A stretch of 64,000 nucleotides of DNA from Candidatus Staskawiczbacteria bacterium (GTDB lineage: Bacteria; Patescibacteriota; Minisyncoccia; Minisyncoccales; Staskawiczbacteraceae). Numbering within the stretch: position 1 is the first letter of the stretch; each line of letters begins with the position of its first letter. The DNA lies in assembly GCA_026395175.1 (NCBI GenBank), contig JAPLZF010000019.1:3115-67114 (forward strand), written 5' to 3'. Below the pieces are notes generated by a model. That model worked only from the letters and a program-made list of their open reading frames with translations, was not told where the DNA came from and ran no database searches. The translations under genes and the position numbers were made by a program. Shown here piece by piece: positions 4,191 to 52,833 of this stretch.

Positions 4191-4195
4191 TTGAA

Positions 4196-4233
4196 ATAGT
4201 AGGTTTTTTGGCTCGAGCCAAAAAACCTACTAT
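4196..4233. repeat. 38-bp perfect palindrome, family 2 copy 1 (ATAGTAGGTTTTTTGGCTCGAGCCAAAAAACCTACTAT)
   Basis: read directly; centred on CTCGAG; overlaps stop codon of the 4230..4772 gene. Confidence 0.9.
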
Positions 4234-4772
4234 AATCCGAACTTTAATTTAATTTTGTCCTGATTGTCTATAAAATCTAACAGCCCAAATCTGACATATT
4301 TTTCAAGCTTAAATAATTTTACAAAGTCATCAACTTCCTTTTTACAATCATATGGGTGCAAAAAAATGCTTTCTTGTAACTCATAAAACCCTCCCATTTT
4401 TAACCTATAATTAAGAGCATTCCTGCCCTTTCTGCATTCGTTAGGTATATCAAAAGCTACCATGCGCCACTTGCCATCCCATTTTTCTTTTTTGTTGTTA
4501 AGTCTTCTAAATCTAAAATTGATCGCTCGAAGTAATCCCCTCTCAGTTAAAGAAACCAAAACAGCCCCTTCGTAATTTTTCTTTTTCTCAATTAACTTTT
4601 CCTTTTTAAGGTCGTAAACCGCAGTGCTTAATTGTTTTGAGCTAAAATTATGTATGTCTTTAAGCACATCATTCAAAAGAAAAAATCTGGCATCATCACG
4701 CCCACCAACTCGACACTGTTCGGTTTGATAATATATGTTCCACAATATTTCTTCTATAATTTGATTCTTCAT
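4230..4772 (-). CDS. PaaX-family / Cas2-fold (VapD-like) domain protein
   Basis: 180-aa ORF; segment WDGKWRMVAFDIPNECRKGRNALNYRLKMGGFYELQESIFLHPY resembles the Cas2-like ferredoxin fold found in PaaX C-terminal regions; assignment by eye only. Confidence 0.5.
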   Translation of the reverse strand: MKNQIIEEILWNIYYQTEQCRVGGRDDARFFLLNDVLKDIHNFSSKQLSTAVYDLKKEKLIEKKKNYEGAVLVSLTERGLLRAINFRFRRLNNKKEKWDGKWRMVAFDIPNECRKGRNALNYRLKMGGFYELQESIFLHPYDCKKEVDDFVKLFKLEKYVRFGLLDFIDNQDKIKLKFGL

Positions 4773-4821
4773 GTTTAGATGTCTTTATATGTTTTATTAT
4801 ACCAAAATTCTTTTCTTTCAT

Positions 4822-4859
4822 ATAGTAGATTTTTTGGCTCGAGCCAAAAAACCTACTAT
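4822..4859. repeat. Palindrome family 2 copy 2 (one mismatch)
   Basis: ATAGTAGATTTTTTGGCTCGAGCCAAAAAACCTACTAT, 50 nt upstream of the 4230..4772 gene start. Confidence 0.9.
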
Positions 4860-5003
4860 TCTCTGTTCCTTTTATTTTTTATGTCAGCTATTTTCTATCT
4901 CACGTAAAAAAAAAATACAAAAAAAGAGCGCTGGGCGAACCATGCGCTATGTGATGCTGTATCGCCTGATTTTCGCGCTTACGCGCAATTATCATTTGAT
5001 GGG

Positions 5004-9094: not shown

Positions 9095-9670
9095 TTATTT
9101 CGCAAATTTAAAAGTGGAAAGTATTTGAGACACGTCGCTATTAAAAGAAAAAATATCAATAACATAAACTAAATTATTTTTTTCTAAAATATACGTAGCA
9201 CTAGTGTCCGTTTTTGGGTCCCTGCCAAAATAAAACTTTTCAGCTCGAAGTCCATTTATATAAACTGTTTCTCTTGTATGAGTTGCCTTATTACTTAACC
9301 ATGAATCTATATTTCCGCTTTGGATATACAAATCTAGACCAATAGGCACACCATTCGGCTCGCCAATTGCTGATATTTGCATCCAATGAAGAGTTTTTCC
9401 CTCAGGAGTTTCAACAAATAAGCTCCACTTATCAGCTGGATATTTTATAGAAAATCCATACTGAGAATTTGTATATGTTTTCCAACCAGCAGTTTGGGTT
9501 TGGATTTGGTTGGTTTTTTGGCTCGAGCCAAAAAACTTACTATTTTGTTGTGCTTTTGTTGCAAATGTTGCAAAATATTGCCAAGCAAAAACTCCGCCGA
9601 AAAGAATAATTGCTATGGCGATGATAATTATGATGCCGACTAACGTTGAAATTCCTTTTTGTTTTTGCAT
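9095..9670 (-). CDS. Hypothetical membrane-anchored protein inserted between rpoB and rpoC
   Basis: 191-aa ORF; N-terminal TM helix (LVGIIIIIAIAIILFGGVFAW) then soluble domain; contains palindrome family 2 copy 3 in frame. Confidence 0.5.
   Translation of the reverse strand: MQKQKGISTLVGIIIIIAIAIILFGGVFAWQYFATFATKAQQNSKFFGSSQKTNQIQTQTAGWKTYTNSQYGFSIKYPADKWSLFVETPEGKTLHWMQISAIGEPNGVPIGLDLYIQSGNIDSWLSNKATHTRETVYINGLRAEKFYFGRDPKTDTSATYILEKNNLVYVIDIFSFNSDVSQILSTFKFAK
9507..9543. repeat. Palindrome family 2 copy 3 (degenerate arms) inside a CDS
   Basis: GGTTTTTTGGCTCGAGCCAAAAAAC core identical to copies 1 and 2; encodes KFFGSSQKT in the 191-aa ORF. Confidence 0.8.
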
Positions 9671-13417: not shown

Positions 13418-14509
13418 CTATCGCCTGATTTTGATGCTTTGGAGGATGCCAAGGCAAATAAAGTTGCCGATTAAGCCCGAGCCTCCATAACTGATAAACG
13501 GCAAATAAATTCCCACAACCGGCAACAAAGAAAGGTTCATTCCAATGTTAATAAAAAACTGGGCGGTCAAAATTATTGCAAAGCCCGAAGCAAAAAGCCG
13601 GGGAAAATTAGACTTTGACATAATTGCAATTTTTAAAACTCGCCAAACCAAAAACCCATAAATTGCAAACAAAAATATAACTCCGATTATTCCCCACTCT
13701 TCGGCAATTACAGAAAAAATAAAATCTGTGTGAGGCTCGGGCAAAAATCCGTATTGCACCTGGCTCCCCTTTGCCATTCCCTGCCCTAAAATTTGACCAG
13801 AACCAATTGAAATTTTTGTTTGGTTTTGACTCCACGAAGCGCCCAAATAATCATAGGGAAACAAAAAAGATGTAATGCGTTGTTTTTGATAATCGTGAAG
13901 CAAAAAACCCCAGGCAAACCCGGCCACCAGCAAAAAACATAAAGACAAAATTAAAAAGTGTTTTAGCTTAATCCCTGAAACCAGTAAAATTCCCAGCCAA
14001 ATCAGCAGTAAAACCATGGTTCCGCCCAAATCCGGTTTTATGAAAACCAGCAAGGCAGGAGTTAAAACATATAAGCCGGAAAAAATAATGTTCCTAAATT
14101 TATACATTTCAACGTGACGCATTGAAAAATATTTTGCCAGCAGAACAACCAAAACAATTTTTGTCGGCTCAATCGGGTCTAAAGACAAAATTCCAACTTT
14201 GTACCAGCCCCTGGTGCCTCTTATCACCGGCGCAAAAAAATGAAGTCCCGCCAGCATCAACAAGCAAATTGCGTATAAAATTAAAATTAAATAAGAATTG
14301 TTTCTTAAAATTCTGTAGTCAAAAAAACTGAACAAAATCATCAGTAAAAACCCTATAACAAAAAAAACAATCTGCTTCTCAAAATTAGAAAAATTGTTTT
14401 TTGCCACGCAGGTTGACCAAATTCCAGCTAATCCAAAACAAACCAGCAAAATTGCCGGTATTATTATCCCCCAATCAAGTTTTCTCAACTGACTTGTTAA
14501 AATCCCCAT
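13418..14509 (-). CDS. SEDS-family peptidoglycan polymerase (FtsW/RodA)
   Basis: 363-aa polytopic membrane ORF; PEPHTDFIFSVIAEEWG and LPFISYGGS motifs typical of FtsW/RodA/SpoVE. Confidence 0.85.
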   Translation of the reverse strand: MGILTSQLRKLDWGIIIPAILLVCFGLAGIWSTCVAKNNFSNFEKQIVFFVIGFLLMILFSFFDYRILRNNSYLILILYAICLLMLAGLHFFAPVIRGTRGWYKVGILSLDPIEPTKIVLVVLLAKYFSMRHVEMYKFRNIIFSGLYVLTPALLVFIKPDLGGTMVLLLIWLGILLVSGIKLKHFLILSLCFLLVAGFAWGFLLHDYQKQRITSFLFPYDYLGASWSQNQTKISIGSGQILGQGMAKGSQVQYGFLPEPHTDFIFSVIAEEWGIIGVIFLFAIYGFLVWRVLKIAIMSKSNFPRLFASGFAIILTAQFFINIGMNLSLLPVVGIYLPFISYGGSGLIGNFICLGILQSIKIRR

Positions 14510-16521
14510 TATTTTACTAATTTCAAAAATTCTTTTTCAGAAAGCGTTTTTACTCCAAGTTTTTTGGCCTTATCTGCCTTGCTTCCTGGTTCTAACCCTA
14601 CCACAACATAACTTGTTTTTGAAGATACAGATTCAGAAATATCCCCGCCCAATTCCCTAATTTTTGCTTTTGCTTCGTCACGACTCATTGATTCTAAAGT
14701 TCCGGTCAAAACAAAACTTGACCCGCTCAACTTTTGGGTTTTGGGTTTTGGGTTTTGAGTTTTAACAAATTTTTGGAGTTTCTCTAAAAATTTGACATTG
14801 TCTTTTTCTTCAAACCACTCATAAATAGACTTTGAAACAATTGGCCCAATATCTGAAATTTTATCAAAATCCTCCAGTTTTGCTTCTTTAATTTTTTTGA
14901 TGCTTCCAAAATGTTTTGCCAGGTCAATTGCTGTTTCTTCTCCAACGTTGCGAATTCCCAAGGCATAAATAAATCTCGATAAAGCAATTTCCCGTTTTTC
15001 CTGAATTGATTTTATTAAGTTTTCAGCTGACTTTTCCGCAAATCTCTCCAAACCTTTTAAATCACCTTCTTTTAACTCAAATAAGTCTGCCGGCGTCTGC
15101 ACCAGTCCTTCATCCAGCAACTTGTCTATAATTTTTGGCCCCAAGCCGTCCATGTTAAAAGCAGCGCGAGAAACAAAATGGTAGAAATTCCTTCTTTTCT
15201 GCGCAAAGCAGTTTTTGTTGGGACAACGCAAAAGCACTTCTCCCTCAACTTTTTCTAATTTTGTTCCGCAGGAAGGACATTTTTCCGGCATTTTAAAATT
15301 TTTCTCGTGGCCGGTTCGCAATTCCGGCAAAACTTTTATAATATCCGGAATTACGTCGCCTGCTCTACCAACAATCACCGTGTCGCCAATTTTCAGGCCC
15401 AGTCTTTTTATTTCGTCTTCATTGTGCAAAGTTGCCCTTGAAATTGTAATTCCTGTAACTTGCACAGGTTCTAAAATTGCCACCGGTGTCATGGCTCCTG
15501 TTCTGCCAACCTGCACTATTACGTCTAAAACTTTTGTGGTTGACTGCGCCTGAGGAAATTTATAGGCAATGGCGCCCCGCGGAGCTTTGCCCACAAAACC
15601 CAATTTTTCAAAAATTTCATTATTGTTTATTATCACAACAATTCCGTCAATTTCGTAATCCAGCTTTTCCCTTCCTTTTATCCAGTGTTCTCTGAAATGC
15701 AAAACTTCCTCTAAACTTTTACAATATTTGTTGTGCTTATTTGTTTTAAAGCCTAAATCTTTTAAAATTTTGTGAGTTTGCTCGTGGGTTGCCTGGCTAA
15801 AATTAGTTTTTAAGTCATATATAAAAGAATCCAGTTTTCTTAAAGCAGTAATTTTGGGGTCTAATTGCCTCACAGAACCTGCTGCAATATTTCTTGGATT
15901 TGCATAAACTGCCAAGCCTTTTTCTTTTTGTTCTTTGTTTATTCTTTTAAATTCTTTTTTAGTAATAAAAACTTCCCCCCGCACAACTAAAGTTTTGGGG
16001 ACGTCCGACGTCCCACCGGACGTCGGACGTCCTAAGACTAATGGGATTGCTTCAACTGTTTTTAGGTTTTGTGTAATATCTTCTCCAATATTTCCATCTC
16101 CCCTTGTAGAACCTGTTTGTAAAAATCCGTCTTTATAAATTAATTCAATTGCCAGGCCGTCAATTTTTAATTCGCAATAATAATTTATTTTATTTTTGTC
16201 TTTTTCAGGAACTAATTTTATAAATCTTTCCTGCCAATCTGTAATATCGTCTTTTGAAAATGCGTCGTTAAAAGAAAGCATTCTTTGGCTATGCCTTATT
16301 TTTTTAAACTCTTTTAAGGGCTGGCCTCCCACTCTTTGCGTTGGCGAATCTTGTGTAATTAAATCTGGAAATTGGTTTTCCAAATCAAAAAGTTCCTTTT
16401 TTAAAGAATCCAAAGCAGAATCGGAAATTTCCTGTCGGTCTTGTACATGATAAAGATAACGATGATGATTTATCGTTTTTCTTAATTTTTCAATTCTTTG
16501 TTTTATTTCTTGCTTATCCAT
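14509..16521 (-). CDS. ligA: NAD-dependent DNA ligase LigA
   Basis: 670-aa ORF; adenylation motif CELKIDG, Zn finger CPSCGTKLEKVEGEVLLRCPNKNC, HhH and C-terminal BRCT (FVLTGTLESMSRDEAK). Confidence 0.96.
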   Translation of the reverse strand: MDKQEIKQRIEKLRKTINHHRYLYHVQDRQEISDSALDSLKKELFDLENQFPDLITQDSPTQRVGGQPLKEFKKIRHSQRMLSFNDAFSKDDITDWQERFIKLVPEKDKNKINYYCELKIDGLAIELIYKDGFLQTGSTRGDGNIGEDITQNLKTVEAIPLVLGRPTSGGTSDVPKTLVVRGEVFITKKEFKRINKEQKEKGLAVYANPRNIAAGSVRQLDPKITALRKLDSFIYDLKTNFSQATHEQTHKILKDLGFKTNKHNKYCKSLEEVLHFREHWIKGREKLDYEIDGIVVIINNNEIFEKLGFVGKAPRGAIAYKFPQAQSTTKVLDVIVQVGRTGAMTPVAILEPVQVTGITISRATLHNEDEIKRLGLKIGDTVIVGRAGDVIPDIIKVLPELRTGHEKNFKMPEKCPSCGTKLEKVEGEVLLRCPNKNCFAQKRRNFYHFVSRAAFNMDGLGPKIIDKLLDEGLVQTPADLFELKEGDLKGLERFAEKSAENLIKSIQEKREIALSRFIYALGIRNVGEETAIDLAKHFGSIKKIKEAKLEDFDKISDIGPIVSKSIYEWFEEKDNVKFLEKLQKFVKTQNPKPKTQKLSGSSFVLTGTLESMSRDEAKAKIRELGGDISESVSSKTSYVVVGLEPGSKADKAKKLGVKTLSEKEFLKLVK
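14732..14766. repeat. Heptanucleotide tandem repeat (TTTTGGG x3 then TTTTGAG, TTTTAAC) inside ligA
   Basis: read directly; encodes KTQNPKPKTQK linker just before the BRCT domain. Confidence 0.85.
15997..16032. repeat. GC-rich palindrome family 1 (REP-like) doublet inside ligA
   Basis: GGGGACGTCCGACGTCCCACCGGACGTCGGACGTCC; encodes GRPTSGGTSDVP in frame. Confidence 0.9.
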
Positions 16522-18643: not shown

Positions 18644-19280
18644 TATTTATAAGTCCCGATGTATTTACAAAAACTTTTCTGGCTGACAATCCGTTGTTCA
18701 AGACAATGTTAATTCCAGATTGCCCTAAATTAAGAGTATCTATTGTTGTAATCGGGTCTGGCGGAGTGAAATTTACGCTGGCATAACTACCCATAATATT
18801 TTCAATGCCTTCAATGTATAAACTTGGATTTTCCTTGCTCACATCAATTTCGTCTATAACGCAATCGGTCGCAAGCGGATATATAATTGGGTTTCCCTGG
18901 TCGGCTTCATCGCAAAAAGGATATGACAGGTCGCCACTATATTTTTTATCTCCGTTTACATCGGCATATATCACATATTTTATATTTTCGCGCGGGTTTG
19001 TATTGCTGACATCAAAATAAATTCCGTATCCTTCCACTGTTATCGGCTGGCCGTTTGTGTCATTCAATTTAATTCCGGACAATCCCAAATCCTGAGTTCT
19101 TCTCAAATCCTGCGCCAGCTTATAAGCAGCTCTGGAAAGCGCATATTGCTTTTGAATTCTGGGAAAATCAGAAATTACAATAAGCGAAAACAAAGCAATT
19201 ATAAAAATCATAACAACGATTTCGACGAGAGTAATTCCTTTGCTATATTTTTTTAAATTTGAAAAAAATTTAGATACCAT
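18633..19280 (-). CDS. Type IV minor pilin (GspH/FimT-like)
   Basis: SKGITLVEIVVMIFIIALFS prepilin motif. Confidence 0.7.
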   Translation of the reverse strand: MVSKFFSNLKKYSKGITLVEIVVMIFIIALFSLIVISDFPRIQKQYALSRAAYKLAQDLRRTQDLGLSGIKLNDTNGQPITVEGYGIYFDVSNTNPRENIKYVIYADVNGDKKYSGDLSYPFCDEADQGNPIIYPLATDCVIDEIDVSKENPSLYIEGIENIMGSYASVNFTPPDPITTIDTLNLGQSGINIVLNNGLSARKVFVNTSGLINIVP

Positions 19281-20041
19281 TGAATTATTTGACTTCCATA
19301 AAGCAGCGCCAAAAAAGTTCCCGCAATCAAAAATGGTCCAAAAGGTATTTCGCTTTTCAAACCTTTTTTCTCAAAAACCATCAATATTATTCCTATTATA
19401 GCACCAAAAAAGAATGCTAAAAACAGAGCAGTTAAAATATTCGGAAAGCCCAGCAAAAGTCCCATCAAAACAGCTAGTTTTACGTCTCCAAAACCCATCC
19501 ACCGCCCTTTTGAGATTAAAAATATAAACAAGAAAAAACCGGCTGCGATGATTAGCGCAATAAAAACATTTAATATGTTCTGCCAATTGGTTAAATTATA
19601 AATTAAGGAAATTACTATTGCCGGGAATAAAACTTTGTCGGGAATCAAATAATGCTTCAAATCATAAACAAAAATTACAATTAAGGAGCTGGCAATATAA
19701 AATAAAAAAGCAAGGTTTAAAAATTGAAAAATTTCGATTTGATTCGAAATTCGAAATTCGAAATTCGAAATTAGCAGGAATATGATTCCTGCGGCAAGTT
19801 CGACTAACGGATATTGCAATGATATTTTTGCTTTGCAATACCTGCATTTTCCGCGCAGAAATAAAAAGCTTAAAACAGGAAATAAATCATACCAAAATAA
19901 AGTGTGTTTGCAATGCGGACAAAATGACCGGCCTTTTAAGCTTTTTTCTTCTTCTAACCTGTAAATTAGGCAATTCAAAAAACTGCCGATACAAACCCCG
20001 AACAAAAAAACAAAAAAACTTATTATATAACTGATAAACAT
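19253..20041 (-). CDS. pilD: Prepilin peptidase (A24 family) PilD
   Basis: 262-aa polytopic ORF; N-terminal CxxC...CxxC (CPHCKH, CRYCK), GFGDVKL aspartyl-protease motif. Confidence 0.9.
   Translation of the reverse strand: MFISYIISFFVFLFGVCIGSFLNCLIYRLEEEKSLKGRSFCPHCKHTLFWYDLFPVLSFLFLRGKCRYCKAKISLQYPLVELAAGIIFLLISNFEFRISNQIEIFQFLNLAFLFYIASSLIVIFVYDLKHYLIPDKVLFPAIVISLIYNLTNWQNILNVFIALIIAAGFFLFIFLISKGRWMGFGDVKLAVLMGLLLGFPNILTALFLAFFFGAIIGIILMVFEKKGLKSEIPFGPFLIAGTFLALLYGSQIIQWYLNFFQI
19733..19772. repeat. Heptanucleotide tandem repeat (TTCGAAA x4) inside pilD
   Basis: read directly; encodes NFEFRISN segment. Confidence 0.85.
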
Positions 20042-21046: not shown

Positions 21047-21514
21047 TTATGGACAAGCTCCTGTGGCGCAAGTCGCGCTAGCAGTTGCTGCCTCTACTTT
21101 TTTGCCGGAAGAATCAACGCAAAAACTTTTTGTTGCATCGTTTTTTAATACTACGCTGGCGCACCATTTAGTAGATGGGTCGGTGCATGTATTAGTGGCG
21201 CCTGAATCGCAGGCACAGGTCATGGTATATCCTGCGGCCGTTAAAGCTGTATTGATAGAGGCTCCGCCAGTTGTTGCTGTACAGAAGGTATTATACTTGC
21301 CGTTGTTCGCAGGGGTATCAATATATACAGTGCCCCTAGTCATCATACTTGCCAAATTACCTCTTGCTGCCGCGTCTTTGCCTTTGTTGATGTATTGGGT
21401 GACGTTAACCAACACAATGGCGGCTAATACCGCGATGATTGCGATAACGACGATTAATTCAATGATTGTAAAACCCTTCGATTGGCTCAGGGCTAAGCCT
21501 TTTGATTTATTCAT
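21047..21514 (-). CDS. Type IV major pilin paralog 1
   Basis: MNKSKGLALSQSKGFTIIELIVVIAIIAVLAAIVLVNVTQYINKGKDAA; Cys-rich variable C-terminus. Confidence 0.88.
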   Translation of the reverse strand: MNKSKGLALSQSKGFTIIELIVVIAIIAVLAAIVLVNVTQYINKGKDAAARGNLASMMTRGTVYIDTPANNGKYNTFCTATTGGASINTALTAAGYTMTCACDSGATNTCTDPSTKWCASVVLKNDATKSFCVDSSGKKVEAATASATCATGACP

Positions 21515-21558
21515 TTTGTTGTTATATAAAAGTTTTTATTAATTTATTATATTTACTT

Positions 21559-21605
21559 ATTATATTCTTTAACAAAATAGCAAGCAACATATAGGGTGTG
21601 GATAA
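21559..21605 (-). promoter_or_regulatory. Promoter of pilin paralog 1 with upstream TTATCCACA box
   Basis: minus strand TTATCCACA (21597..21605) - 9 nt - TTGCTT - 17 nt - TATAAT. Confidence 0.6.
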
Positions 21606-21678
21606 CTCAAAAAAAACAGAGCTCAATAAAGAACTCTGTTTTTAATTTTAATTTCGCAAAACAATTCTTGCTTTATAA

Positions 21679-22137
21679 TTACAAGCAAGTTCCTGTTGCA
21701 ACTAGACATGTCCCGCTAGCTTTACTCAACTTGTTTCCAGTAGAATCCACGCAATACGTGTTCGTGGACGATTTCAAGGTAACTTGCGCACACCAATTTG
21801 TAGATGGATCAGCACAAGCAGCAACATTGCAAGTGGCTGTAACTGTGTAACCAGCGGCAACTAATGCGTTATAAACAGAAACATAACCAGCTGCGCCAGT
21901 TCCAGTACCCGTAATAAAACCATTATAAGTGCCCGGTTTAGCATTGACGGGTGTAGTATCACCCGCAAACCATGTGGCTCCGTTTGTTATTAAAGAAGCC
22001 AAGTTGCCTTGTGCTGCTGCGTCTTTGCCTTTGTTGATGTAGCCGGTGACGTTAACCAACACAATGGCGGCTAATACCGCGATGATTGCGATAACGACGA
22101 TTAATTCAATAATTGTAAAACCTTTTGATTTATTCAT
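21679..22137 (-). CDS. Type IV major pilin paralog 2
   Basis: MNKSKGFTIIELIVVIAIIAVLAAIVLVNVTGYINKGKDAA; divergent C-terminus. Confidence 0.88.
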   Translation of the reverse strand: MNKSKGFTIIELIVVIAIIAVLAAIVLVNVTGYINKGKDAAAQGNLASLITNGATWFAGDTTPVNAKPGTYNGFITGTGTGAAGYVSVYNALVAAGYTVTATCNVAACADPSTNWCAQVTLKSSTNTYCVDSTGNKLSKASGTCLVATGTCL

Positions 22138-22179
22138 TTTGTTATTATTTTATTTTTTAAGCTCGACCTTTCTTAAATA

Positions 22180-22587
22180 TTATGGACAAACTGTGGCATC
22201 AAAATCGGCGCAAGCGGCAGTAACTGATTTCTTGGTTCCAGAACTGTCAACGCACCAATAATTTGCGGCTGTTGTAAGCAATTGAGAACAAGCGGCCCAT
22301 TCTGTAGCGCTTTCGACGCATACTTTGTCTGCTGTTGCTGATGGGTCTTGGTCAAAGATAGGTTTTCCGGCGGCAAAATTGGCAGCGCAGAATCCTGTGT
22401 AAGTATGATTTGTATCGTAGAATGTGGCTCCGTTTGTAAGCAAGGTTGCCATGTTTCCTTCTATTGCCGCGTCTTTGCCCTTGTTGATGTATTGGGTGAC
22501 ATTAACCAACACTATGGCGGCCAATACCGCGATAATTGCGATAACGACGATTAATTCAATAATTGTAAAACCTTTTGATTTATTCAT
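22180..22587 (-). CDS. Type IV major pilin paralog 3
   Basis: MNKSKGFTIIELIVVIAIIAVLAAIVLVNVTQYINKGKDAA; divergent C-terminus. Confidence 0.88.
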   Translation of the reverse strand: MNKSKGFTIIELIVVIAIIAVLAAIVLVNVTQYINKGKDAAIEGNMATLLTNGATFYDTNHTYTGFCAANFAAGKPIFDQDPSATADKVCVESATEWAACSQLLTTAANYWCVDSSGTKKSVTAACADFDATVCP

Positions 22588-22628
22588 TTTATTTTTTAAG
22601 TTTAAATTGTTTAATTTATTAGATTTTC

Positions 22629-22679
22629 TATACTTCGCCTTACGGCTCAGTATCTCGCCCCGTCAAACGGGACTCGACC
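22629..22679 (-). promoter_or_regulatory. Conserved two-hairpin 5' leader element, copy 1
   Basis: minus strand GGTCGAG-TCCCG-loop-CGGGG-CGAGATACTGAGCC-GTAA-GGCGAAGTAT; near-identical copy at 46751..46805 with compensatory stem changes. Confidence 0.5.
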
Positions 22680-22697
22680 TTTTTTATATTTTACTTC

Positions 22698-22743
22698 ATT
22701 TTACAGAATTAAAGATATTGACGCAATAGCAAGATGTGGATAA
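22698..22743 (-). promoter_or_regulatory. Promoter of pilin paralog 3 with upstream TTATCCACA box
   Basis: minus strand TTATCCACA (22735..22743) - 8 nt - TTGCGT - 17 nt - TAAAAT. Confidence 0.55.
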
Positions 22744-22805
22744 CTTCGTAGCGAGCAAGGCGAGCGGAGATCCTGACGCCCGAAGGCGGAAGGATAATAA
22801 CTGAT

Positions 22806-23279
22806 TTAATCAGGGCAGTGCGTTATATCCTCTCCGTCTGGACAAATGGTAATATCGCCAACGCAATGGTTATAGCATATTTCTTTTTTCATTCCCCTGC
22901 TGTCAACACAAAAAGCCAAATTCGGATTTGTAAATTCCCTGGCGCAGGCAGCCCATGCTTGGGAAATGGCGCCGCAACAAGCTCCGGTGGGATTCGAATT
23001 TTCGTCGTAGCATATAGTTGAAGGATTTGCCGGCGCTTGGGAAGCGATATTTGCAACAACAGGGGAAGTGCAAAAACTGACTCCTTCTTTGTTATAGCTG
23101 TTGCCGTTGTTGTTATAAAAAACTTCTCCGGCAGGAATTAAAATAGCCAAACTGCCGGAAACATTAGCGTCTTTACCCCTGCTGATGTATTGAGTAACCG
23201 AAAACAAAATAATTCCGGACAAAACAGCGGTTATCGCAATAACAACAACTAATTCTATAATTGTGAATCCTTTATCCAT
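22806..23279 (-). CDS. Type IV pilin paralog 4 (more divergent)
   Basis: start moved to MDKGFTIIELVVVIAITAVLSG (internal Met of the 172-aa track ORF, avoiding overlap with pilC); Cys-rich C-terminus. Confidence 0.8.
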   Translation of the reverse strand: MDKGFTIIELVVVIAITAVLSGIILFSVTQYISRGKDANVSGSLAILIPAGEVFYNNNGNSYNKEGVSFCTSPVVANIASQAPANPSTICYDENSNPTGACCGAISQAWAACAREFTNPNLAFCVDSRGMKKEICYNHCVGDITICPDGEDITHCPD

Positions 23280-23301
23280 AAATAATTTAAAATTTAAAAT
23301 T

Positions 23302-36188: not shown

Positions 36189-38402
36189 ATGATTTCGCTG
36201 AGTACAAAAGTTGAGGAAATACCGAAGATTGGAACGGTTTATGCAAAAAGATTGAAAAAGTTCGGCATAAAAACAGTGCAGGACCTGCTTTTTTATTTCC
36301 CGGCAAGATACGACGACTTTTCAGAAATAATTTCAATTAGTCGGGCCCGCCAAAGGTTAAACGATGTTGTTTGCGTGCAGGGGCAAATTACAGAAATTGA
36401 AAATTCTAATAGTTTTAAAAAGTTTATGTCGCTTACAGAAGCGACAATTCAAGATAATAGCGGAGAAATAAAAATTATTTGGTTTAACCAGCCATATTTG
36501 TCAAAAAATTTAAAAGAAGATGATTTTGTGTGCTTGGCGGGAAAAATAAGCTTGGGAAAAGATGGAGTTTATTTTAACAGCCCAAGCTATGAAAGAATAA
36601 ATGAAATTGGAGAAAATGAAGAGCTGACTCACACGGGCAGAATTGTGCCGGTTTATTCAGAAACAAAAGGTGTGACGAGCCGCTGGCTAAGATATGTAAT
36701 AAAACCTTTGCTTTATCGCTTTTGCGAACAAATTCAGGAATCTTTGCCAGAAGAAATTATTAAAAAATACAAATTTTTGCCAATACAAGAAGCTGTTTGG
36801 CAATTGCATTTTCCAAATTCTTTTGAGCACGCAGACGCAGCCAAAGCCCGCTTTTCTTTTGAAGAATTATTTTTAATCCAACTTAATGTTTTAAAAGAAA
36901 AAATAAAGTTGATGGTAAAAAAAGCTCATGCCTGCCCAATGGATTCAGATTTAATGAAAAGTTTTACCGATTCTTTGCCATTTTGCCTGACAGACTCGCA
37001 AAAAAAATGCGCATATGCAATTTTAAAGGATTTAGAAAAAACAGTTCCAATGTCCCGGCTTTTAGAGGGTGATGTTGGCTCTGGAAAAACTGTTGTCGCC
37101 ACGTTGGCGACACTGAACGTAGTGAAGTGTGGCCACCAAGTAGCCCTCATGGCACCAACGGAAATTTTGGCAAAACAACATTTTAAAACCGTTTCAGAAT
37201 TGTTAAAAGATTTTGACGTAAAAATTGGAATGCTGACTGGTAAAGATGCAAGAATTTTTAAAGAACAAAACACATATGAGGTTTCTAAAAAAAGTTTTCT
37301 TGGAGACTTGGAAAACGGGCAAATTGATATTGCTATCGGCACACATTCATTAATTCAAAAAGGAGTAGATTTTAAAGATTTGGCTTTGGTAATTTTAGAC
37401 GAACAGCACCGTTTTGGAGTAGAGCAAAGAGACCATTTAATAAAAAACAAAAAACTGGTTCCACATTTGCTTTCAATGACAGCAACTCCAATTCCAAGAA
37501 CTTTGGCTTTGACAGCTTATGGCGACTTAGATTTGTCTTTAATTGACGAAATGCCAGCCAACAGAAAAAAAGTAAAAACAATTATTGTTGAACCTAGCCA
37601 AAGAAAAGAAGCTTACAATTTTATTGACAAAGAAGTTAAAGAAGGCAAAGGAGTTTTTGTTATTTTCCCAAAAATTGACTCTGCGGCGACAAAACAAAAA
37701 GAATTGGAAGCAAAAGGACGTCCGACATCCCGCGGGATGTCGGACGTCCCAATAACTGGTTCTTTTGTGCCACAAAATTATGGCCCAATGTCTTTAGCGT
37801 CTTTAGCGGTCAACGAAGTTAAAGCTCTAAAAGAAGAATATGAAAAATTATCAAAAGAAGTTTTTCCCGATTTAAGAATTACAATGCTACACGGGAAAAT
37901 GAAGGCGCCTGAAAAAGAAAGAATAATGCTGGACTTTAAAAAAGGAGAAATTGATATTTTGCTTTCAACTTCTGTTGTTGAAGTTGGAGTTGATGTTCCA
38001 CGAGCAACTATAATGATGATTGAGGGAGCCGAGCGTTTTGGGCTGTCCCAGCTTCACCAGTTCAGAGGACGTGTTGGAAGGTCAGATATGCAGTCTTATT
38101 GCTTTTTGTTCACCACAGACCCAAGTATGCTTAATAGAAAGCGCCTAAAAGCCTTGGTTGAGTCAAACAACGGGTTTGAGCTTGCCGAAAAAGATTTAGA
38201 AATTAGGGGCCCGGGTAGTTTATATGGCACTCAGCAATGGGGAATTCCCGACATGGCAATGCAAGGCTTAACAAACATATTTTTAGTTGAAAAAACTCGC
38301 GCCGCCGCCAAAGAGCTTTTAGAAAAAGATCCTTCTTTGGAAAAACATCCTCAATTGAAAGAGCGCTTAAAAGAATTTGAAAAGCGCATCCACTTTGAGT
38401 AA
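36189..38402 (+). CDS. recG: ATP-dependent DNA helicase RecG
   Basis: wedge domain, helicase motifs GDVGSGKT, DEQHRFG, SMTATPIPRT, QLHQFRGRVGRS; start moved to MISLSTKVEE. Confidence 0.93.
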   Translation: MISLSTKVEEIPKIGTVYAKRLKKFGIKTVQDLLFYFPARYDDFSEIISISRARQRLNDVVCVQGQITEIENSNSFKKFMSLTEATIQDNSGEIKIIWFNQPYLSKNLKEDDFVCLAGKISLGKDGVYFNSPSYERINEIGENEELTHTGRIVPVYSETKGVTSRWLRYVIKPLLYRFCEQIQESLPEEIIKKYKFLPIQEAVWQLHFPNSFEHADAAKARFSFEELFLIQLNVLKEKIKLMVKKAHACPMDSDLMKSFTDSLPFCLTDSQKKCAYAILKDLEKTVPMSRLLEGDVGSGKTVVATLATLNVVKCGHQVALMAPTEILAKQHFKTVSELLKDFDVKIGMLTGKDARIFKEQNTYEVSKKSFLGDLENGQIDIAIGTHSLIQKGVDFKDLALVILDEQHRFGVEQRDHLIKNKKLVPHLLSMTATPIPRTLALTAYGDLDLSLIDEMPANRKKVKTIIVEPSQRKEAYNFIDKEVKEGKGVFVIFPKIDSAATKQKELEAKGRPTSRGMSDVPITGSFVPQNYGPMSLASLAVNEVKALKEEYEKLSKEVFPDLRITMLHGKMKAPEKERIMLDFKKGEIDILLSTSVVEVGVDVPRATIMMIEGAERFGLSQLHQFRGRVGRSDMQSYCFLFTTDPSMLNRKRLKALVESNNGFELAEKDLEIRGPGSLYGTQQWGIPDMAMQGLTNIFLVEKTRAAAKELLEKDPSLEKHPQLKERLKEFEKRIHFE
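37716..37750. repeat. GC-rich palindrome family 1 doublet inside recG
   Basis: GGACGTCCGACATCCCGCGGGATGTCGGACGTCCC; encodes GRPTSRGMSDVP in frame. Confidence 0.9.
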
Positions 38403-40590: not shown

Positions 40591-41775
40591 ATGAAAATAC
40601 TTGCCATAGAAACATCCTGCGACGACACGGGAATTGCCATTTTGGAGGTCTCAAAGACTGGAGATTTTGCTGTTAAGGCAAATGTTATTGCTTCACAAGT
40701 AAAAATTGGCAAAAAATACGGCGGAGTTTATCCAATGATGGCAAAACGCGAGCACCAAAAAAATATTCTGCCGGCCTTAATTAGCGCTTTGGAAAAAGCC
40801 AGGATGCTGAAAAAACCCGACAAAAGCCCAAAGGAGCATTTTGACGGGCCCGCCACAATCTCGCTAGAAGCGAGTTTGGGCGCGGTTTTAGAGAGAGAAC
40901 CGGAGTTGCTGAAAAAAATAATTCCATTCTTTAAGAAATATGAAAAACCAGATGTAGATTTAATTTCTGTCACAAATGGACCCGGTTTAGAGCCGTGTTT
41001 GTGGGTTGGAATAAATTTTGCAAAATGTTTGTCTTACTTTTGGAATATTCCGATTGTGCCGGTAAATCATACTGAATCTCACATTTTGGTAAATACTTTA
41101 GAAAATAAAAATATTAAATTCCCTGCCATTGCCTTAGTTGTTTCTGGCGGGCATACGCAAATTATTTTAGTGAAAGGCAAACCCCACTTCGCTAAAGCTT
41201 CGCGGGGCGCGTACAAAATTTTGGGTGAAACCAGAGACGATGCAGCAGGAGAATGCTTTGACAAATGCGCAAAAATTTTAGGTTTAGGCTACCCTGGCGG
41301 ACCAATTATTTCCAAATTAGCAGTAAAGTCGGTGGGATGTCGGACGTCCCACCGACTTCCGAGACCAATGATGGGCTCGGGTGATTATGATTTTAGTTTT
41401 TCAGGGCTGAAAACAGCTGTTTTGTATCAAGTGAAGAAAGACAAGAACAATTCTATGGAATTGTTCAATAAAGAATATAAAATGAAAATGGCGGCAGAAA
41501 TTCAGCAGGCAATAATTGATGTCTTAATTAAAAAAACAATAAAAGCCGGCACAGATTATAAAGCAAAAACAATAATTCTTGGAGGGGGAGTTTCTGCAAA
41601 CCAAGAATTAAGAAAACAATTTCTAGAATTTTCCAACGAATTTAAAATAATTTTTCCAAAACCAGAATTATCAACCGACAACGGTTTAATGATTGCTATT
41701 GCCGGGTTTTATCACAAAAATAAAATTACAAATTGGAAAAAGATATCTGCCAACGGCAATTTACGAATAAACTAA
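40591..41775 (+). CDS. tsaD: tRNA N6-adenosine threonylcarbamoyltransferase TsaD (with lineage-specific inserts)
   Basis: MKILAIETSCDDTGIAIL, VSGGHTQ, DDAAGECFDK, GGVSAN motifs; 394 aa versus about 340 typical. Confidence 0.92.
   Translation: MKILAIETSCDDTGIAILEVSKTGDFAVKANVIASQVKIGKKYGGVYPMMAKREHQKNILPALISALEKARMLKKPDKSPKEHFDGPATISLEASLGAVLEREPELLKKIIPFFKKYEKPDVDLISVTNGPGLEPCLWVGINFAKCLSYFWNIPIVPVNHTESHILVNTLENKNIKFPAIALVVSGGHTQIILVKGKPHFAKASRGAYKILGETRDDAAGECFDKCAKILGLGYPGGPIISKLAVKSVGCRTSHRLPRPMMGSGDYDFSFSGLKTAVLYQVKKDKNNSMELFNKEYKMKMAAEIQQAIIDVLIKKTIKAGTDYKAKTIILGGGVSANQELRKQFLEFSNEFKIIFPKPELSTDNGLMIAIAGFYHKNKITNWKKISANGNLRIN
41328..41356. repeat. GC-rich palindrome family 1 single unit inside tsaD
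   Basis: GTCGGTGGGATGTCGGACGTCCCACCGAC; encodes SVGCRTSHRLP in frame. Confidence 0.9.
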
Positions 41776-41796: not shown

Positions 41797-43863
41797 ATGG
41801 AACTGCCTTCTCAATACAACGCAAAAGAGGTTGAGGATAAAATTTACCAGCTTTGGGAAAAAAGCGGTTTTTTTAATCCCGACAATTTACCCACCCGCCA
41901 CAAAAAACCGTTTTGCATAATAATGCCTCCGCCAAATTCTAATGGCAGTCTGCACATTGGACACGCGCTTTTTGTGACTTTAGAAGATGTAATGACAAGA
42001 TACCAAAGAATGCAAGGGAAAAAAGCTTTGTGGCTACCGGGAGCCGACCACGCTGGTTTTGAAACCCAGGTTGTTTATGACAAAAAGTTGGAAAAGGAAG
42101 GCAGAAATAGATTTCAAATTCCAAAAGACCAATTATATCAAGAAATTTTGGAATTTACTTTGGCAAATAAAAAAGTGATGGAGCGCCAACTAAAAAAATT
42201 AGGAGCTTCCTGTGACTGGTCGCGTGAAAAATTTACCTTAGATGAGAATATAATAAAAGTTGTTTATGAAACTTTTGAAAAATTAAAAAAAGACGAATTG
42301 GTTTACAAGGGAAAAAGAATTGTAAACTGGTGCGTAAAACACCAGACTTCCCTTTCAGAATTGGAATTAAAATATGAAGACAGAACAAGCCCTCTTTATT
42401 ATATAAAATATCCCTTTTCAGATAAAAATGGCTTTTTAATCGTTGCCACAACAAGGCCTGAAACAATGCTGGGAGACACAGCTGTTGCTGTTAATCCAAA
42501 AGATGAGAAGTATAAGGGTTTAATTGGCAGAAAAATTATTTTGCCTCTGACGGGCAGGGAAATTGAGATTATTTCAGATGATGCAATTGATAAGGAATTC
42601 GGCACGGGAGCTGTAAAAGTGACACCGGCTCACGACATGGTTGATTTTGAAATAGGACAAAAGCATAAATTAGAAACAATTCAAATTATCAGCAACAGAG
42701 GAAAAATTATAAATTCGCCAGAAAAATATAACGGACTGAATGTTGAAGAAGCAAGAAAAAAAATAGTTGAAGATTTGCAGGCTGAAGGATTGCTGGAAAA
42801 AGTTGATTCTGATTATAAAAACCGGGTTAGTTTATGCTATAAGTGCGCAAGAGTGATAGAACCAATGCCTTTAGACAACCAATGGTTTGTGAGAATGACT
42901 GCCAAACCGAAATCTGGAAAATTATCTTTGAGAGATTCTGCAGTAAAAGCAGTAAAAGATAAAAAAATTGTTTTTGTTCCCAAAAGAATGGAAAAAATAT
43001 TTTTGCACTGGATGAAAAATCTGCGGGACTGGAACATTTCCAGGCAGATTACCTGGGGAATTCCAATTCCGGGCGACGAAAACGGCCAGGTTTTTGATAC
43101 TTGGTTTTCATCCGGGCAATGGCCGTTTGCTACTTTAAAATCAACAAAAAAAGGCGACTTTGAAAAATTTTATCCGACAGATGTAATGGAAACCGGCTGG
43201 GACATTTTATTTTTCTGGGTAGCCCGTATGACTATGCTTGGCATTTATGCAACAGGAGAAGTTCCTTTTAAAAATGTTTATTTGCACGGATTAGTTCGCG
43301 ATAAAGACAAACAAAAAATGTCAAAATCTAAGGGAAATGTTATTGACCCCTTGGGAGTTATGGATATTTATGGCACAGATGCTTTGAGAATGGCGCTGGT
43401 TGTTGGCAACACTCCGGGGAATGACTTGGCAATATCGGAAGAAAAAATAAAAGGATACAGAAATTTTGCCACAAAAATTTGGAATGCAAGCCGGTTTGTA
43501 ATGATGCAAACCGGAAATTCGAAATTCGAAATCCGAAATCCGAAACAAACTCTAAATTCTAAAGACAAAAAATTAATAAAAGATTTTAAAAAAATTGCAA
43601 AAGAAGTCACAAAAGAAATGGACGAATTTAAATTTTACGTAGCCTCTGAAAAAATTTACCATTATTTTTGGCACACATTCTGTGATAAAATTATTGAAGA
43701 TTATAAAGAAAAAAGGGTAAGCCAATATGTTTTGCTAACTTTGCTTTCTGAATCGTTAAAGCTTTTGCATCCTTTTATGCCTTTTGTAACCGAAGAAATC
43801 TACCAGCAATTGCCCATCAAAAAGAAACAGAAATGTTTGATGGTTGAAAGCTGGCCGAAATAA
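41797..43863 (+). CDS. valS: Valine--tRNA ligase (short form lacking C-terminal coiled coil)
   Basis: 688-aa ORF; PPPNSNGSLHIGHA (HIGH) and KMSKSKGN (KMSKS) motifs, ValRS-type N-terminus. Confidence 0.9.
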   Translation: MELPSQYNAKEVEDKIYQLWEKSGFFNPDNLPTRHKKPFCIIMPPPNSNGSLHIGHALFVTLEDVMTRYQRMQGKKALWLPGADHAGFETQVVYDKKLEKEGRNRFQIPKDQLYQEILEFTLANKKVMERQLKKLGASCDWSREKFTLDENIIKVVYETFEKLKKDELVYKGKRIVNWCVKHQTSLSELELKYEDRTSPLYYIKYPFSDKNGFLIVATTRPETMLGDTAVAVNPKDEKYKGLIGRKIILPLTGREIEIISDDAIDKEFGTGAVKVTPAHDMVDFEIGQKHKLETIQIISNRGKIINSPEKYNGLNVEEARKKIVEDLQAEGLLEKVDSDYKNRVSLCYKCARVIEPMPLDNQWFVRMTAKPKSGKLSLRDSAVKAVKDKKIVFVPKRMEKIFLHWMKNLRDWNISRQITWGIPIPGDENGQVFDTWFSSGQWPFATLKSTKKGDFEKFYPTDVMETGWDILFFWVARMTMLGIYATGEVPFKNVYLHGLVRDKDKQKMSKSKGNVIDPLGVMDIYGTDALRMALVVGNTPGNDLAISEEKIKGYRNFATKIWNASRFVMMQTGNSKFEIRNPKQTLNSKDKKLIKDFKKIAKEVTKEMDEFKFYVASEKIYHYFWHTFCDKIIEDYKEKRVSQYVLLTLLSESLKLLHPFMPFVTEEIYQQLPIKKKQKCLMVESWPK
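43514..43546. repeat. Heptanucleotide tandem repeat (GAAATTC x2, GAAATCC x2) inside valS
   Basis: read directly; reverse complement of the pilD repeat unit; encodes NSKFEIRNPKQ. Confidence 0.85.
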
Positions 43864-45315: not shown

Positions 45316-45624
45316 TTAGAGAGAAGCAGGAATACCGAATGTGGTTCTCACAAGCGAGATGGCAACGCCAGACAATACTATTAACAATGTTCCAATAACA
45401 GCTGCTATCAAGGCCTTTTTGGCAGTTCCCGTTTTTTCTGGGCTACCGGCTGAAGTAAGATATAAAATTCCGGCAATAACCCAGCCAACAACTATAAGTG
45501 GCACGCCTACATTAACGACAGCCGTTTGAACCGAGCCTGCTATACTCCCGACATCTGCTGCATATGCGAAGCCAGGCAATACTAAAATTCCTAATAATAC
45601 TAAAAATAGCGTTTTCTTATTCAT
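45316..45624 (-). CDS. VirB2/TrbC-like (T4SS-pilin-like) small membrane protein, paralog a
   Basis: signal peptide MNKKTLFLVLLGILVLPGFAYA then two TM helices joined by LTSAGSPEKTGTAKKA loop. Confidence 0.6.
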   Translation of the reverse strand: MNKKTLFLVLLGILVLPGFAYAADVGSIAGSVQTAVVNVGVPLIVVGWVIAGILYLTSAGSPEKTGTAKKALIAAVIGTLLIVLSGVAISLVRTTFGIPASL

Positions 45625-45649
45625 ATATTTTTATCTATAAAATTATACA

Positions 45650-45997: not shown

Positions 45998-46008
45998 ATT
46001 CTTATTTT

Positions 46009-46805: not shown

Positions 46806-46816
46806 TTTATAAATTT

Positions 46817-51464: not shown

Positions 51465-52199
51465 TTATTCTAACGCCAATTTTTCAAGATCTGGTAGCTT
51501 ATTCTTATTTTTTATCCAGCCGTCAATTCCAGCTCTACATCCTACTGGACCACCCATAAACTCCAAAAAGAAATCTCTTTGCGTTACCGAAGGAAAAGTT
51601 TTTTTACCTAAATAATCAACATAACTGTGGCGCTTATTGTTTTCCAAAAATTCTTTGACTTTTTTGGGATTTTTTATCCCTTTTTCCTTCCAGCCGGGCT
51701 CAATTATAGAAATTAGATTAGCGTGCACATATAAAAATGCATTTCTCAATTGGTCGTCGTCCTTAATATGAACTGCACGAAATTTATTAAAAAGATGCCC
51801 CATACGCTGATATTTCTTGTTAAAATATTTAGCGTATCCGCCATTAACTTTTTTCATGAATTCAGTTATACCATTGTCCTCTAACTGCTTTACAATTAAA
51901 TGTAAATGATTGGGCATAAAGGAAAAAGCAAGCACATCCACTAATTTATCTCTCTCGTCAATATATTCAGAAAGGTGGGATGTCGGACGTCCCACCGACT
52001 CTCTTTCTTGCTTCTTAAATCTATTACGAGCCCTTCTCCGTTCCCAAATTTCTACCTTTTTACTATTATTAAATTCGTAAATAGAAAAAATACCGCGATA
52101 AAAATCACTCTCGTCAACAAAAATAACTGTGTCTCCGACGGCCCTGCTCACGACATGATAAATTTCGTCGTTAACTAAAAGAGGTTTGATATAACTCAT
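51465..52199 (-). CDS. IS200/IS605-family Y1 (HUH) transposase, RAYT-like
   Basis: start moved to MSYIKPLLVNDEIYHVVSRAV; HUH motif MPNHLHLIV; later FLYVHANL Tyr region; the track ORF N-terminal extension runs through a repeat and overlaps the next gene. Confidence 0.7.
   Translation of the reverse strand: MSYIKPLLVNDEIYHVVSRAVGDTVIFVDESDFYRGIFSIYEFNNSKKVEIWERRRARNRFKKQERESVGRPTSHLSEYIDERDKLVDVLAFSFMPNHLHLIVKQLEDNGITEFMKKVNGGYAKYFNKKYQRMGHLFNKFRAVHIKDDDQLRNAFLYVHANLISIIEPGWKEKGIKNPKKVKEFLENNKRHSYVDYLGKKTFPSVTQRDFFLEFMGGPVGCRAGIDGWIKNKNKLPDLEKLALE
51974..51999. repeat. GC-rich palindrome family 1 copy inside the RAYT CDS
   Basis: GGTGGGATGTCGGACGTCCCACCGAC; encodes SVGRPTSHLS in frame. Confidence 0.9.
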
Positions 52200-52356: not shown

Positions 52357-52767
52357 CTACGCTCGGGAAGCGAGCTCTCTGATGTTGGCAAACTCTCGAC
52401 TGGACGCCAGCTTTTTCTTTGAGATACCAACTTTGAGAGATGGATTGTCTGCTAGAATTCGGTCAGTCTGTAAGGCGAGTTTCTCCAAGCTCGTTGCAGC
52501 TACCTGATATTCGGGAAGACTGGCGCTTGGTTTTGGCATATGCATTTCCGCAGTATCACACAGCCGCAGACATTCAGCAACGAGCGTGTAAAAAGGCTCC
52601 CCCAACTCCGGTTTAACCGCTCGCAATTCGTTCACGCCCTCCCATGCTGCAACCCGTAAACAGTACTTCTTCGATTTGGCATCTGGGGTAGCCAAATACG
52701 CCAACGCCATATCCAAGACGCTCATCAGTATTTCATTCACCTCCGAAAAATCACCCAATCTACACAT
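52357..52767 (-). CDS. Hypothetical protein in GC-rich island
   Basis: start moved to MCRLGDFSEV (AAGGA 8 nt upstream); GC-rich; no motif recognised. Confidence 0.45.
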   Translation of the reverse strand: MCRLGDFSEVNEILMSVLDMALAYLATPDAKSKKYCLRVAAWEGVNELRAVKPELGEPFYTLVAECLRLCDTAEMHMPKPSASLPEYQVAATSLEKLALQTDRILADNPSLKVGISKKKLASSREFANIRELASRA

Positions 52768-52833
52768 ATTGTTTTCCTTAAAGGTTGCATTCCCATTCCA
52801 ATCAATACTTACTCTCCTTGTCTTCAAATAGAA

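Follow-up and report, generated by a model that had tools for sequence, protein, structure and literature searches.

What places short GC-rich palindromes in frame within conserved genes of an AT-rich bacterial genome, and are they mobile? The question is raised by a 64-kb stretch of DNA (≈37% GC; hereafter the window) from a Candidatus Staskawiczbacteria bacterium of the Candidate Phyla Radiation (CPR; Patescibacteria), corresponding to positions 3,115 to 67,114 of contig JAPLZF010000019.1, in which one palindrome family lies inside ligA, recG, tsaD and a transposase gene. An earlier reading of the same DNA (the original prediction) had described these palindromes as in-frame elements resembling repetitive extragenic palindromic (REP) sequences and had linked them to a REP-associated tyrosine transposase (RAYT). 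We report that they most probably represent REP/REPIN-type miniature mobile elements, with the RAYT-like Y1/HUH transposase whose gene they bracket as the cognate enzyme.

The palindrome family and the transposase gene it brackets

Searching the window with GGGAYGTCGGACGTCCC, allowing up to two mismatches, gave 14 strand matches at seven sites (nine units), compared to a chance expectation of 0.00 matches in 100 dinucleotide-preserving shuffles. A general palindrome scan detected nine GC-rich palindromes of at least 9 bp, of which six belong to the GGGAYGTCGGACGTCCC family, and the remaining three are at the level of shuffled sequence. The REP-like palindrome family is real and far beyond chance. 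The host open reading frames (ORFs) were identified by Pfam as LigA, RecG, TsaD and Y1_Tnp; their frames are open and their domain matches span or flank every insert. The four gene placements were confirmed, with positions and sequences correct to within 1-2 nt and the encoded peptides as first given (Table 1). At gathering thresholds Rfam gave 11 tRNAs only in the window, and no known RNA family at any of the palindromes.

In each unit the tip (GGACGTC-S-GACGTCC) is conserved, whereas the lower stem (GGTGGG/CCCACC) is variable. The head, (A)GTCGG, is unpaired in the gene-flanking copies and may be a variant of the GTAG head; relatives have GTTGG or GCTGG. As single-stranded DNA (ssDNA), single units form hairpins of 13-15 bp, while an inverted pair of units forms one 15-bp hairpin with a 4-nt loop (-19 to -21 kcal/mol), and the folding z-scores were between -5.4 and -7.2 for five of the six units folded. 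The computed hairpins in mRNA are also stable (-26 to -33 kcal/mol). A T-for-C variant at stem position 5 (GGGATGTC for GGGACGTC), present at 37716-37749, 41334-41350, 51977-51993 and 52253-52269, can pair as a T·G wobble on one strand but leaves a C·A mismatch on the opposite strand. On the coding strand, where they have this mismatch, the internal and 5'-flanking copies at the transposase gene fold weakly (-6.7 kcal/mol, z ≈ -1.8). In one related REP type (L208, see below) an A·C mismatch is present one position further out.

The stem covaries among variants of the element. In 84 distinct sequences, collected from the window and low-GC loci, the GTC-S-GAC tip and the GG/CC next to it do not vary, and the lower stem changes but remains paired: nine of the 14 stem pairs change on both sides and 89% of the cells are paired, compared to 28-47% when the partners were slid, a degree of covariation reached by none of 500 shuffles. 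The inner eight pairs were used to select the variants, and the outer six pairs alone constitute the unbiased test of covariation. The element has no stop codon in any of the six frames, a property of 1.4% of random 29-mers at genome composition; special selection for this was considered and rejected, since 28-40% of sequences with the element's own composition are also stop-free, and the property follows largely from being GC-rich. The three frames read VGG(T/M)SDVPP, SVG(R/C)(P/R)TSHR and RWDV(R/G)RPTD, and the two orientations give nearly the same peptides.

The REP family is physically linked to the transposase gene. Besides the internal copy, two copies that were absent from the original prediction bracket the gene, with their GTCGG/CCGAC heads pointing outward. 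The encoded protein has the HUH motif NHLHL (H98, H100) and a candidate catalytic tyrosine, Y157; H98, N127 and Y157 are invariant in an alignment of 85 homologs, with the consensus YIHLNPL around the tyrosine, and relatives number 7,987 cluster representatives at E ≤ 1e-3 and 1,633 at E ≤ 1e-10. While a sequence search against the PDB gave marginal matches only (E ≈ 0.16), the closest fold detected with Foldseek was 4ER8, the E. coli RAYT in complex with a REP hairpin (E = 1e-5); the TnpA structures of ISDra2 and IS608 came next. The AlphaFold2 model has a mean pLDDT (predicted local distance difference test) of 92, and its sole low-confidence loop, residues 71-80 with a mean of 58, holds the internal REP. 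Taken together, the bracketing palindromes, the HUH motif, the invariant tyrosine and the best fold match bear out the proposed link to a RAYT-type transposase.

Table 1. Host genes and palindrome copies in the window, in order of position.
Feature	Position	Strand	Size	Matches, reading and remarks
ligA, NAD-dependent DNA ligase	14509..16521	minus	670 aa	Pfam DNA_ligase_aden, residues 70-323, across the insert
Inverted REP doublet (REPIN-like) in ligA, GGACGTCCGACGTCCCACCGGACGTCGGACGTCC	15999-16032		34 nt	Minus-strand reading GRPTSGGTSDVP
recG	36189..38402	plus	737 aa, from ATG at 36189	Pfam RecG_wedge, DEAD, Helicase_C and RecG_dom3_C, both sides of the insert
Inverted REP doublet in recG, GGACGTCCGACATCCCGCGGGATGTCGGACGTCC	37716-37749		34 nt	Reads GRPTSRGMSDVP
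tsaD	40591..41775	plus	394 aa	Pfam TsaD, 258 bits
Single full-form REP unit in tsaD, AAGTCGGTGGGATGTCGGACGTCCCACCGACTT	41326-41358 (core 41334-41350)		33-nt palindrome	Reads (K)SVGCRTSHRL(P)
3'-flank REP of the transposase gene	51429-51457			7 nt past the stop codon; GTCGG head on the outer side only; -13.1 kcal/mol
RAYT-like Y1/HUH transposase gene	51465..52199	minus	244 aa	Pfam Y1_Tnp, 32.9 bits (cut-off 23)
Internal in-frame REP of the transposase gene	51971-51999	minus-strand ORF		Encodes residues 68-75, SVGRPTSH, in the variable linker before the HUH strand
5'-flank REP (repeat family D5)	52247-52275			≈50 nt ahead of the gene start; shares 97% identity with the internal copy across 34 nt

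The layout with three REPs (5', internal and 3') is also found in the close orthologs L130, L135, L139, L145 and L151, and L160 has the 5'-flank and internal copies; REPs that flank the gene are moreover present in L053, L097, L183 and L208-L211. Five more distant loci repeat the three-REP layout, each with a REP sequence of its own: L208 (58% identity to the window transposase; CGGGGGATGTCCGACACCCCCCG), L210 (46%; CGAGGACWGTCCTCGAACTGG), L209 (45%; AGGACSGCCSGGCSGTCCT), L211 (41%; AGGAAGTCSGACTTCCT) and L053 (37%; TATAAGGACGTCGGACGTCCTTATA). Six REP types hence pair with six transposase lineages, several of the types differing by compensatory stem changes, and REP sequence and transposase vary together between the lineages. 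RAYT homologs adjoin REPs with the same tip at 13 other loci, including Saccharibacteria and other Patescibacteria.

The linker that holds the internal REP is hypervariable in length across the transposase family. That the internal REP is universal was rejected: L212 (38% identity) is free of GC-rich palindromes, the copies at L183 and L097 are flanking ones only, and in many family members the linker is too short for a REP. Since the internal copy matches the flanks in each lineage although the REPs differ, it has been re-acquired, homogenised with the flanks, or selected. We found no description of the three-REP layout in the literature searched (not exhaustive). It is conceivable, if somewhat doubtful, that CPR/Patescibacteria carry a distinct three-REP variant of the REP-RAYT systems (REPtrons), in which the third REP lies in frame in the disordered linker of the ORF, is kept matched to the flanks and forms a hairpin that works as a cis-element rather than being carried along passively. 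Such an internal hairpin could let the enzyme sense, limit or process its own gene or mRNA.

Some further features were noted around this gene and its family. RGPTS or GSPTS occurs at the linker position of the window's GRPTS in the distant members P0478, P0483, P0379 and P0381, and can be read either as a decayed internal REP or as a native motif that resembles the REP product. A toxin-antitoxin pair of a HepT-like RNase and an MNT nucleotidyltransferase (50692-51362) lies directly downstream of the transposase locus. Upstream of the 5' REP there is a GC-richer stretch (52290-52420; ccccacctatgctagcgtggggcc...gagcgttgctacgctcgggaagcgagc) with short inverted repeats and no Rfam match at the gathering threshold, and an ORF (52357..52827) with no Pfam match.

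Copies within ligA, recG and tsaD

In LigA the insert corresponds to residues 164-175 in a loop of the adenylation domain. The window has IPLVLGRPTSGGTSDVPKTLVVRGEVF at a point where the loop of most of 120 LigA homologs (76-90% identity) is short, IPLxIx-E-KK-DLIVRGEVF. Compared at the DNA level to the empty site of L204, the window shows a net gain of 27 nt, and alignment with E. coli LigA (2OWO) has a 6-residue gap at the insert. The doublet folds as ssDNA into a 15-bp hairpin with a 4-nt loop at -21.1 kcal/mol (z = -6.8). AlphaFold2 predicts the insert as coil that connects strands and gives residues 168-171 a pLDDT below 50, but the model is mediocre (mean pLDDT 69, because the alignment of close homologs is shallow) and gives weak support for this. 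The same loop carries other palindromes in other Staskawiczbacteria: P0002 (L203) has nested GCGATGCCGG/CCGGCATCGC arms, another GC-rich palindrome, while P0072 (L205:1980-2030), P0074, P0080 and P0082 have a doublet of GGGGTGTCCGACACCCC, a REP of the L208 type that differs from the window unit by compensatory stem changes. LigA of P0114 carries PSLRGGQKPDEAIQSESTGSLAMT, yet another GC-rich repeat, at the same or an adjacent loop.

The RecG insert lies within a lineage-specific linker of ≈40 residues between the two helicase lobes, a region left unaligned with T. maritima RecG (1GM5), and its doublet folds at -19.0 kcal/mol (z = -7.2). A 93%-identical RecG, P0242/L206 from an independent ENA assembly, is without ten codons exactly there: it reads AAA GGC GAA ATT, where the window reads AAA GGA CGT CCG ... 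GTC CCA ATA, a net difference of 30 nt. Among 120 homologs the linker is a hot spot of several insert types, i.e. single units (GGTSDVPQ), the same doublet (P0254) and decayed doublets, and at least one unrelated repeat family (PSASLRAG/PSISFGAGG) is present a few residues downstream. Homologs with other repeats at or near the linker are P0257, P0265, P0271, P0292 and P0330.

In TsaD the insert precedes the conserved LPRPM motif, in a loop that exceeds its Aquifex and E. coli counterparts by 2-3 residues in PDB alignments. The common form of the loop is E-G-IK-TK-xxLPRPM and that of the window VKSVGCRTSHRLPRPM, a net gain of 9 nt; the hairpin of the unit was calculated at -15.7 kcal/mol as DNA and -25.9 as RNA. 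Most of 120 homologs have the common loop, ≈25 have VGRPTSH-type copies, intact or decayed, and two have the same DNA in another frame (GATSDVAP and IGTSDIP, i.e. GTSDV/IP). Two frames of one DNA element at this site require independent events.

At every intragenic site the net length change is a multiple of three (LigA +27, RecG +30 and TsaD +9 nt). The elements themselves measure 34, 34 and 29-33 nt, respectively, and the net gain is shorter because a few of the original loop codons were replaced. "Inserted", as first worded, is accordingly right in that codons were gained and too simple in that loop codons were also replaced each time. By alignment with orthologs, close relatives among them being without the residues, the intragenic copies in all three proteins represent lineage-specific gains at loops whose length varies among orthologs, as had been proposed. 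The description of the hosts as essential genes does not hold, RecG not being generally essential. Predicted peptides across the insert junctions include ...IPLVLGRPTSGGTSDVPK..., ...GRPTSRGMSDVPITG... and ...SVGCRTSHR....

Distribution and other repeats

A 15-mer scan of genome contigs was swamped by chance matches in high-GC genomes, with ≈15 useful low-GC CPR loci among the matches listed, and a longer 21-mer was for this reason chosen for the metagenome scan. The exact 21-mer, GTGGGAYGTCGGACGTCCCAC, was found in 83 metagenome contigs. Of ≈98 copies, 34 (in 32 unique ORFs) are embedded by 15 codons or more in ORFs of 150 codons or more, and all three reading frames are used among the host ORFs. 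The hosts identified by Pfam are AlaRS, LeuRS, PheRS-beta, TrmD, Sua5/TsaC, TsaD, YchF, RecG, UvrC, an HhH-GPD glycosylase, DNA Pol III delta', ComEA-like and ComF-like proteins, a nuclease, a ROK-family protein, a DUF4015 hydrolase and the Y1 transposase itself. About two thirds of the copies are in a short ORF or none, which at a coding density of ≈88% means that the family is still enriched outside genes. The tip motif with other lower stems was detected, among the matches listed, in genomes of Paceibacterota, Parcubacteria, Saccharibacteria and other Patescibacteria.

The exact 21-mer is also present in frame in TrmD, HhH-GPD glycosylase, Pol III delta' and PheRS-beta on contigs of 54-59% GC (L127, L138, L159, L161, L170 and L202). 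Such a base composition, far from that of the window, hints at horizontal spread of the system or at a very conserved recognition tip.

The window has other repeats as well. A second, unrelated palindrome family, AATAGTAGGTTTTTTGGCTCGAGCCAAAAAACCTACTATA, is present at 4195-4234, 4821-4860 and 9509-9545. Two of its copies bracket an ORF at 4230..4772 (minus strand, 180 aa, Pfam PaaX_M Cas2-like domain) and the third is in frame in an ORF at 9095..9670 (minus strand, weak PsbP_2 match), where it encodes NSKFFGSSQKTNQ directly after an N-terminal membrane helix and represents the second in-frame palindrome family of the window. Tandem 7-mers, ATTCGAA/TCCGAAA (family D20), are found at 19742-19770 and 43503-43545, inside ORFs 19253..20041 (minus strand) and 41797..43863 (plus strand), and two arrays of small paralogous genes with conserved 5' ends at 21325-23294 (D1, D16 and D8) and 45390-47200 (D2, D6, D7, D11 and D15).

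Probable mobile elements, rival explanations and known REP systems

If the palindromes are REP/REPIN-type elements, the transposase would bind the hairpin in ssDNA, cut beside it and move or copy it, by analogy with E. coli TnpA(REP) in vitro. Copies would land in many places and, the genome being ≈88% coding, genic copies would survive if they leave the frame intact and sit in surface loops that tolerate them. Translation of these survivors would yield short peptides rich in Gly, Pro, Ser and Thr, with the frame deciding between GGTSDVP, VGRPTSH and WDVRRPT. Loops that are hit, or that retain their copies, repeatedly would become hot spots.

Several points weigh against this interpretation. 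The RAYT signature consists of a conserved N-terminal Thr and NP(L/V)(R/K)xG beside the Tyr (Nunvar et al. 2010, PMC2817692). The window transposase is without the latter, having YVHANLISII (the family consensus YIHLNPLxL has NP(L) but not (R/K)xG), and there is no Thr in its N-terminal strand (YHVVSR); its score with the NCBIfam model REP_Tyr_transpos, 32.8 bits, is under the cut-off of 80. We therefore call the enzyme RAYT-like by fold, catalytic residues and genomic context, and place it outside the curated sequence signature. The head is GTCGG rather than the canonical GT(A/G)G of REPs, which are palindromes of 20-40 nt, and the copy count is that of 64 kb only (four loci, seven sites). 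Junctions are not clean, such that target motif and duplication are undefinable from filled and empty pairs whose flanks have diverged or been replaced, and the hot spots could result from survivorship alone rather than targeting. Moreover, we infer translation of the inserts from frame conservation, and transposition and enzyme activity from analogy with E. coli TnpA(REP).

Of the rival explanations, nucleic-acid signals selected by the host (DNA-uptake sequences, regulator sites, or intragenic hairpins for pausing or mRNA stability), which would be genic since there is little intergenic space, are the least improbable but still unlikely. The strong hairpins predicted in mRNA would suit such signals. 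The hosts of the palindromes lean to DNA repair, competence and tRNA enzymes, and for DNA-uptake sequences the same bias in host genes has been reported. Intragenic REPs share this bias (PMC3733652). Even distant CPR lineages have an unchanged tip, GGACGTC-S-GACGTCC, above a lower stem that varies; a conserved tip is also expected of a transposase recognition determinant. The density is low for a signal (seven sites in 64 kb, three of them at the transposase locus), presence and absence differ between 93%-identical orthologs, copies decay in orthologs, and a mobile element would be expected to show the close coupling to a Y1 transposase, both physical and evolutionary, that is seen here. It is quite improbable that instead the peptide (GRPTS...SDVP or VGRPTSH) is kept for a role in the protein and palindromy is incidental. 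LigA and RecG do have nearly the same 12-residue peptide in the same frame, and the peptides are hydrophilic and loop-like, but it is the nucleotide sequence that is conserved, with identical 21-mers lacking synonymous variation in unrelated genes, and the covariation keeps pairing and not amino acids. Most orthologs function without the insert and the same DNA also occurs in non-coding positions; the use of all three frames led us to reject a conserved peptide.

Equally hard to sustain is the idea that the elements are untranslated, either cut from the mRNA or skipped by the ribosome, leaving the proteins unaltered. The very stable GC-rich hairpins in AT-rich coding sequence speak for it, and such hairpins resemble the mobile GC clusters of yeast mitochondria, GC-rich palindromes that invade AT-rich compact coding DNA; of these, byp elements are bypassed by the ribosome and need no frame. 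Unlike byp, the frame is always kept here: skipping needs no open frame, yet all examined copies are stop-free and in frame (+9, +27 and +30 nt and the 34 metagenome cases), and decayed copies stay as ordinary coding sequence in orthologs. An assembly or polishing artefact was considered only because the source is a metagenome-assembled genome, and its probability is negligible. The identical element is present at the same RecG and TsaD sites in independently assembled contigs (L136, L181 and L190; proteins P0122 and P0254), the codon positions agree in independent JGI, ENA, NCBI and Logan assemblies, orthologs have diverged copies, the inserts are always in frame, and nothing was found in favour of an artefact. 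None of the rivals accounts for three-frame use, polymorphism between near-identical orthologs and transposase coupling together.

How, then, do the REP/REPIN-type elements of the window compare to known systems? As in the REPtrons (E. coli TnpA(REP)/YafM and Pseudomonas REPINs), they are short GC-rich imperfect palindromes, with an unpaired head in the gene-flanking copies, inverted doublets form one hairpin, a Y1/HUH gene is bracketed by its own REPs, REP and transposase co-vary between lineages, and the best structure for the protein is 4ER8. In contrast to the REPtrons, the transposase is longer (244 aa) and below the cut-off of the curated RAYT hidden Markov model, the host belongs to CPR/Patescibacteria, a third, position-conserved REP is in frame inside the transposase ORF, and all three dispersed loci of the window are intragenic, whereas the REPs of REPtrons, dispersed in high copy number, are mostly extragenic. 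In IS200/IS605 the whole unit, tnpA with or without tnpB and with distinct left and right hairpins, is multi-copy. Its members, whose ISDra2 and IS608 structures ranked second, likewise have a Y1/HUH TnpA that recognises subterminal hairpins in ssDNA, but in the window there is one gene copy and no tnpB, and the flanking hairpins belong to a repeat that is dispersed without the gene. With the Rickettsia palindromic elements (RPEs), the classic example, the elements share in-frame palindromes in housekeeping genes, a reduced genome and a tolerated extra surface peptide. RPE-1 is ≈100-150 bp long, encodes 30-50 residues and is not known to have a transposase; the units here are 29-36 nt (9-12 residues), and we saw no sequence relationship, though no test was aimed at one. 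RPE-1 is also termed 'longer' in the literature on intragenic REPs (PMC3733652), and the analogy with Rickettsia drawn in the original prediction is a fair one, except that in-frame REPs are known beyond Rickettsia (PMC3733652).

Specifically, intragenic GTAG and CGTC REPs have been described in Opitutus, Rickettsia, Xanthomonas, Thauera and others (Di Nocera et al. 2013, PMC3733652), where they cluster in genes for DNA repair (including DNA ligase), tRNA synthetases and tRNA modification, and different REPs may share one site in orthologs, e.g. recB in Xanthomonas. The elements studied here resemble these in that whole REPs or dimers lie in frame in real ORFs with shorter homologs lacking them, in the bias of host functions and in different REPs at one ortholog site. 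The published cases (PMC3733652), however, are from Proteobacteria, Opitutus and Rickettsia, their inserts are mostly of 20-30 residues compared to units of 29-36 nt here, and only a small fraction of each family is intragenic. Membership in the CGTC-tagged REP superfamily was rejected, since CGTC, present twice, is within the stem here while the tag there is unpaired and terminal; neither GTAG nor CGTC was found as an unpaired terminal tag, the unpaired end being GTCGG.

As to novelty, searches for RAYT, REP or palindromic repeats in the candidate phyla radiation, Patescibacteria and Parcubacteria gave nothing relevant in the literature searched (not exhaustive), and keyword searches of two large RAYT/Y1 surveys gave no mention of CPR lineages or of a REP inside the transposase gene. 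Intragenic REPs as such have been on record since 2013; what appears to be new is their CPR setting, together with the conserved internal REP. The system departs from known REP systems in its phylum, in a head other than GTAG, in the very small size of the unit, in the high share of intragenic copies and in the conserved internal REP.

Our findings extend REP/RAYT systems to the Candidate Phyla Radiation. With little intergenic space the element persists largely inside genes, leaving GGTSDVP, VGRPTSH and WDVRRPT in core enzymes, which bears on annotation, on CPR marker-gene alignments and phylogenies, and on how proteins gain loop length. The mechanisms by which REPs spread were still called poorly understood in a 2021 paper on TnpA(REP) (PMC8266576), and a short defined hairpin together with a small enzyme would provide a compact system for studying this. 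Moreover, the three-REP layout gives a concrete starting point for testing how a domesticated hairpin transposase relates to its own gene. If CPR/Patescibacteria do carry a distinct three-REP variant, the movement of REPs in these gene-dense genomes would regularly generate loop-length variation in core proteins such as LigA, RecG, TsaD and tRNA synthetases.

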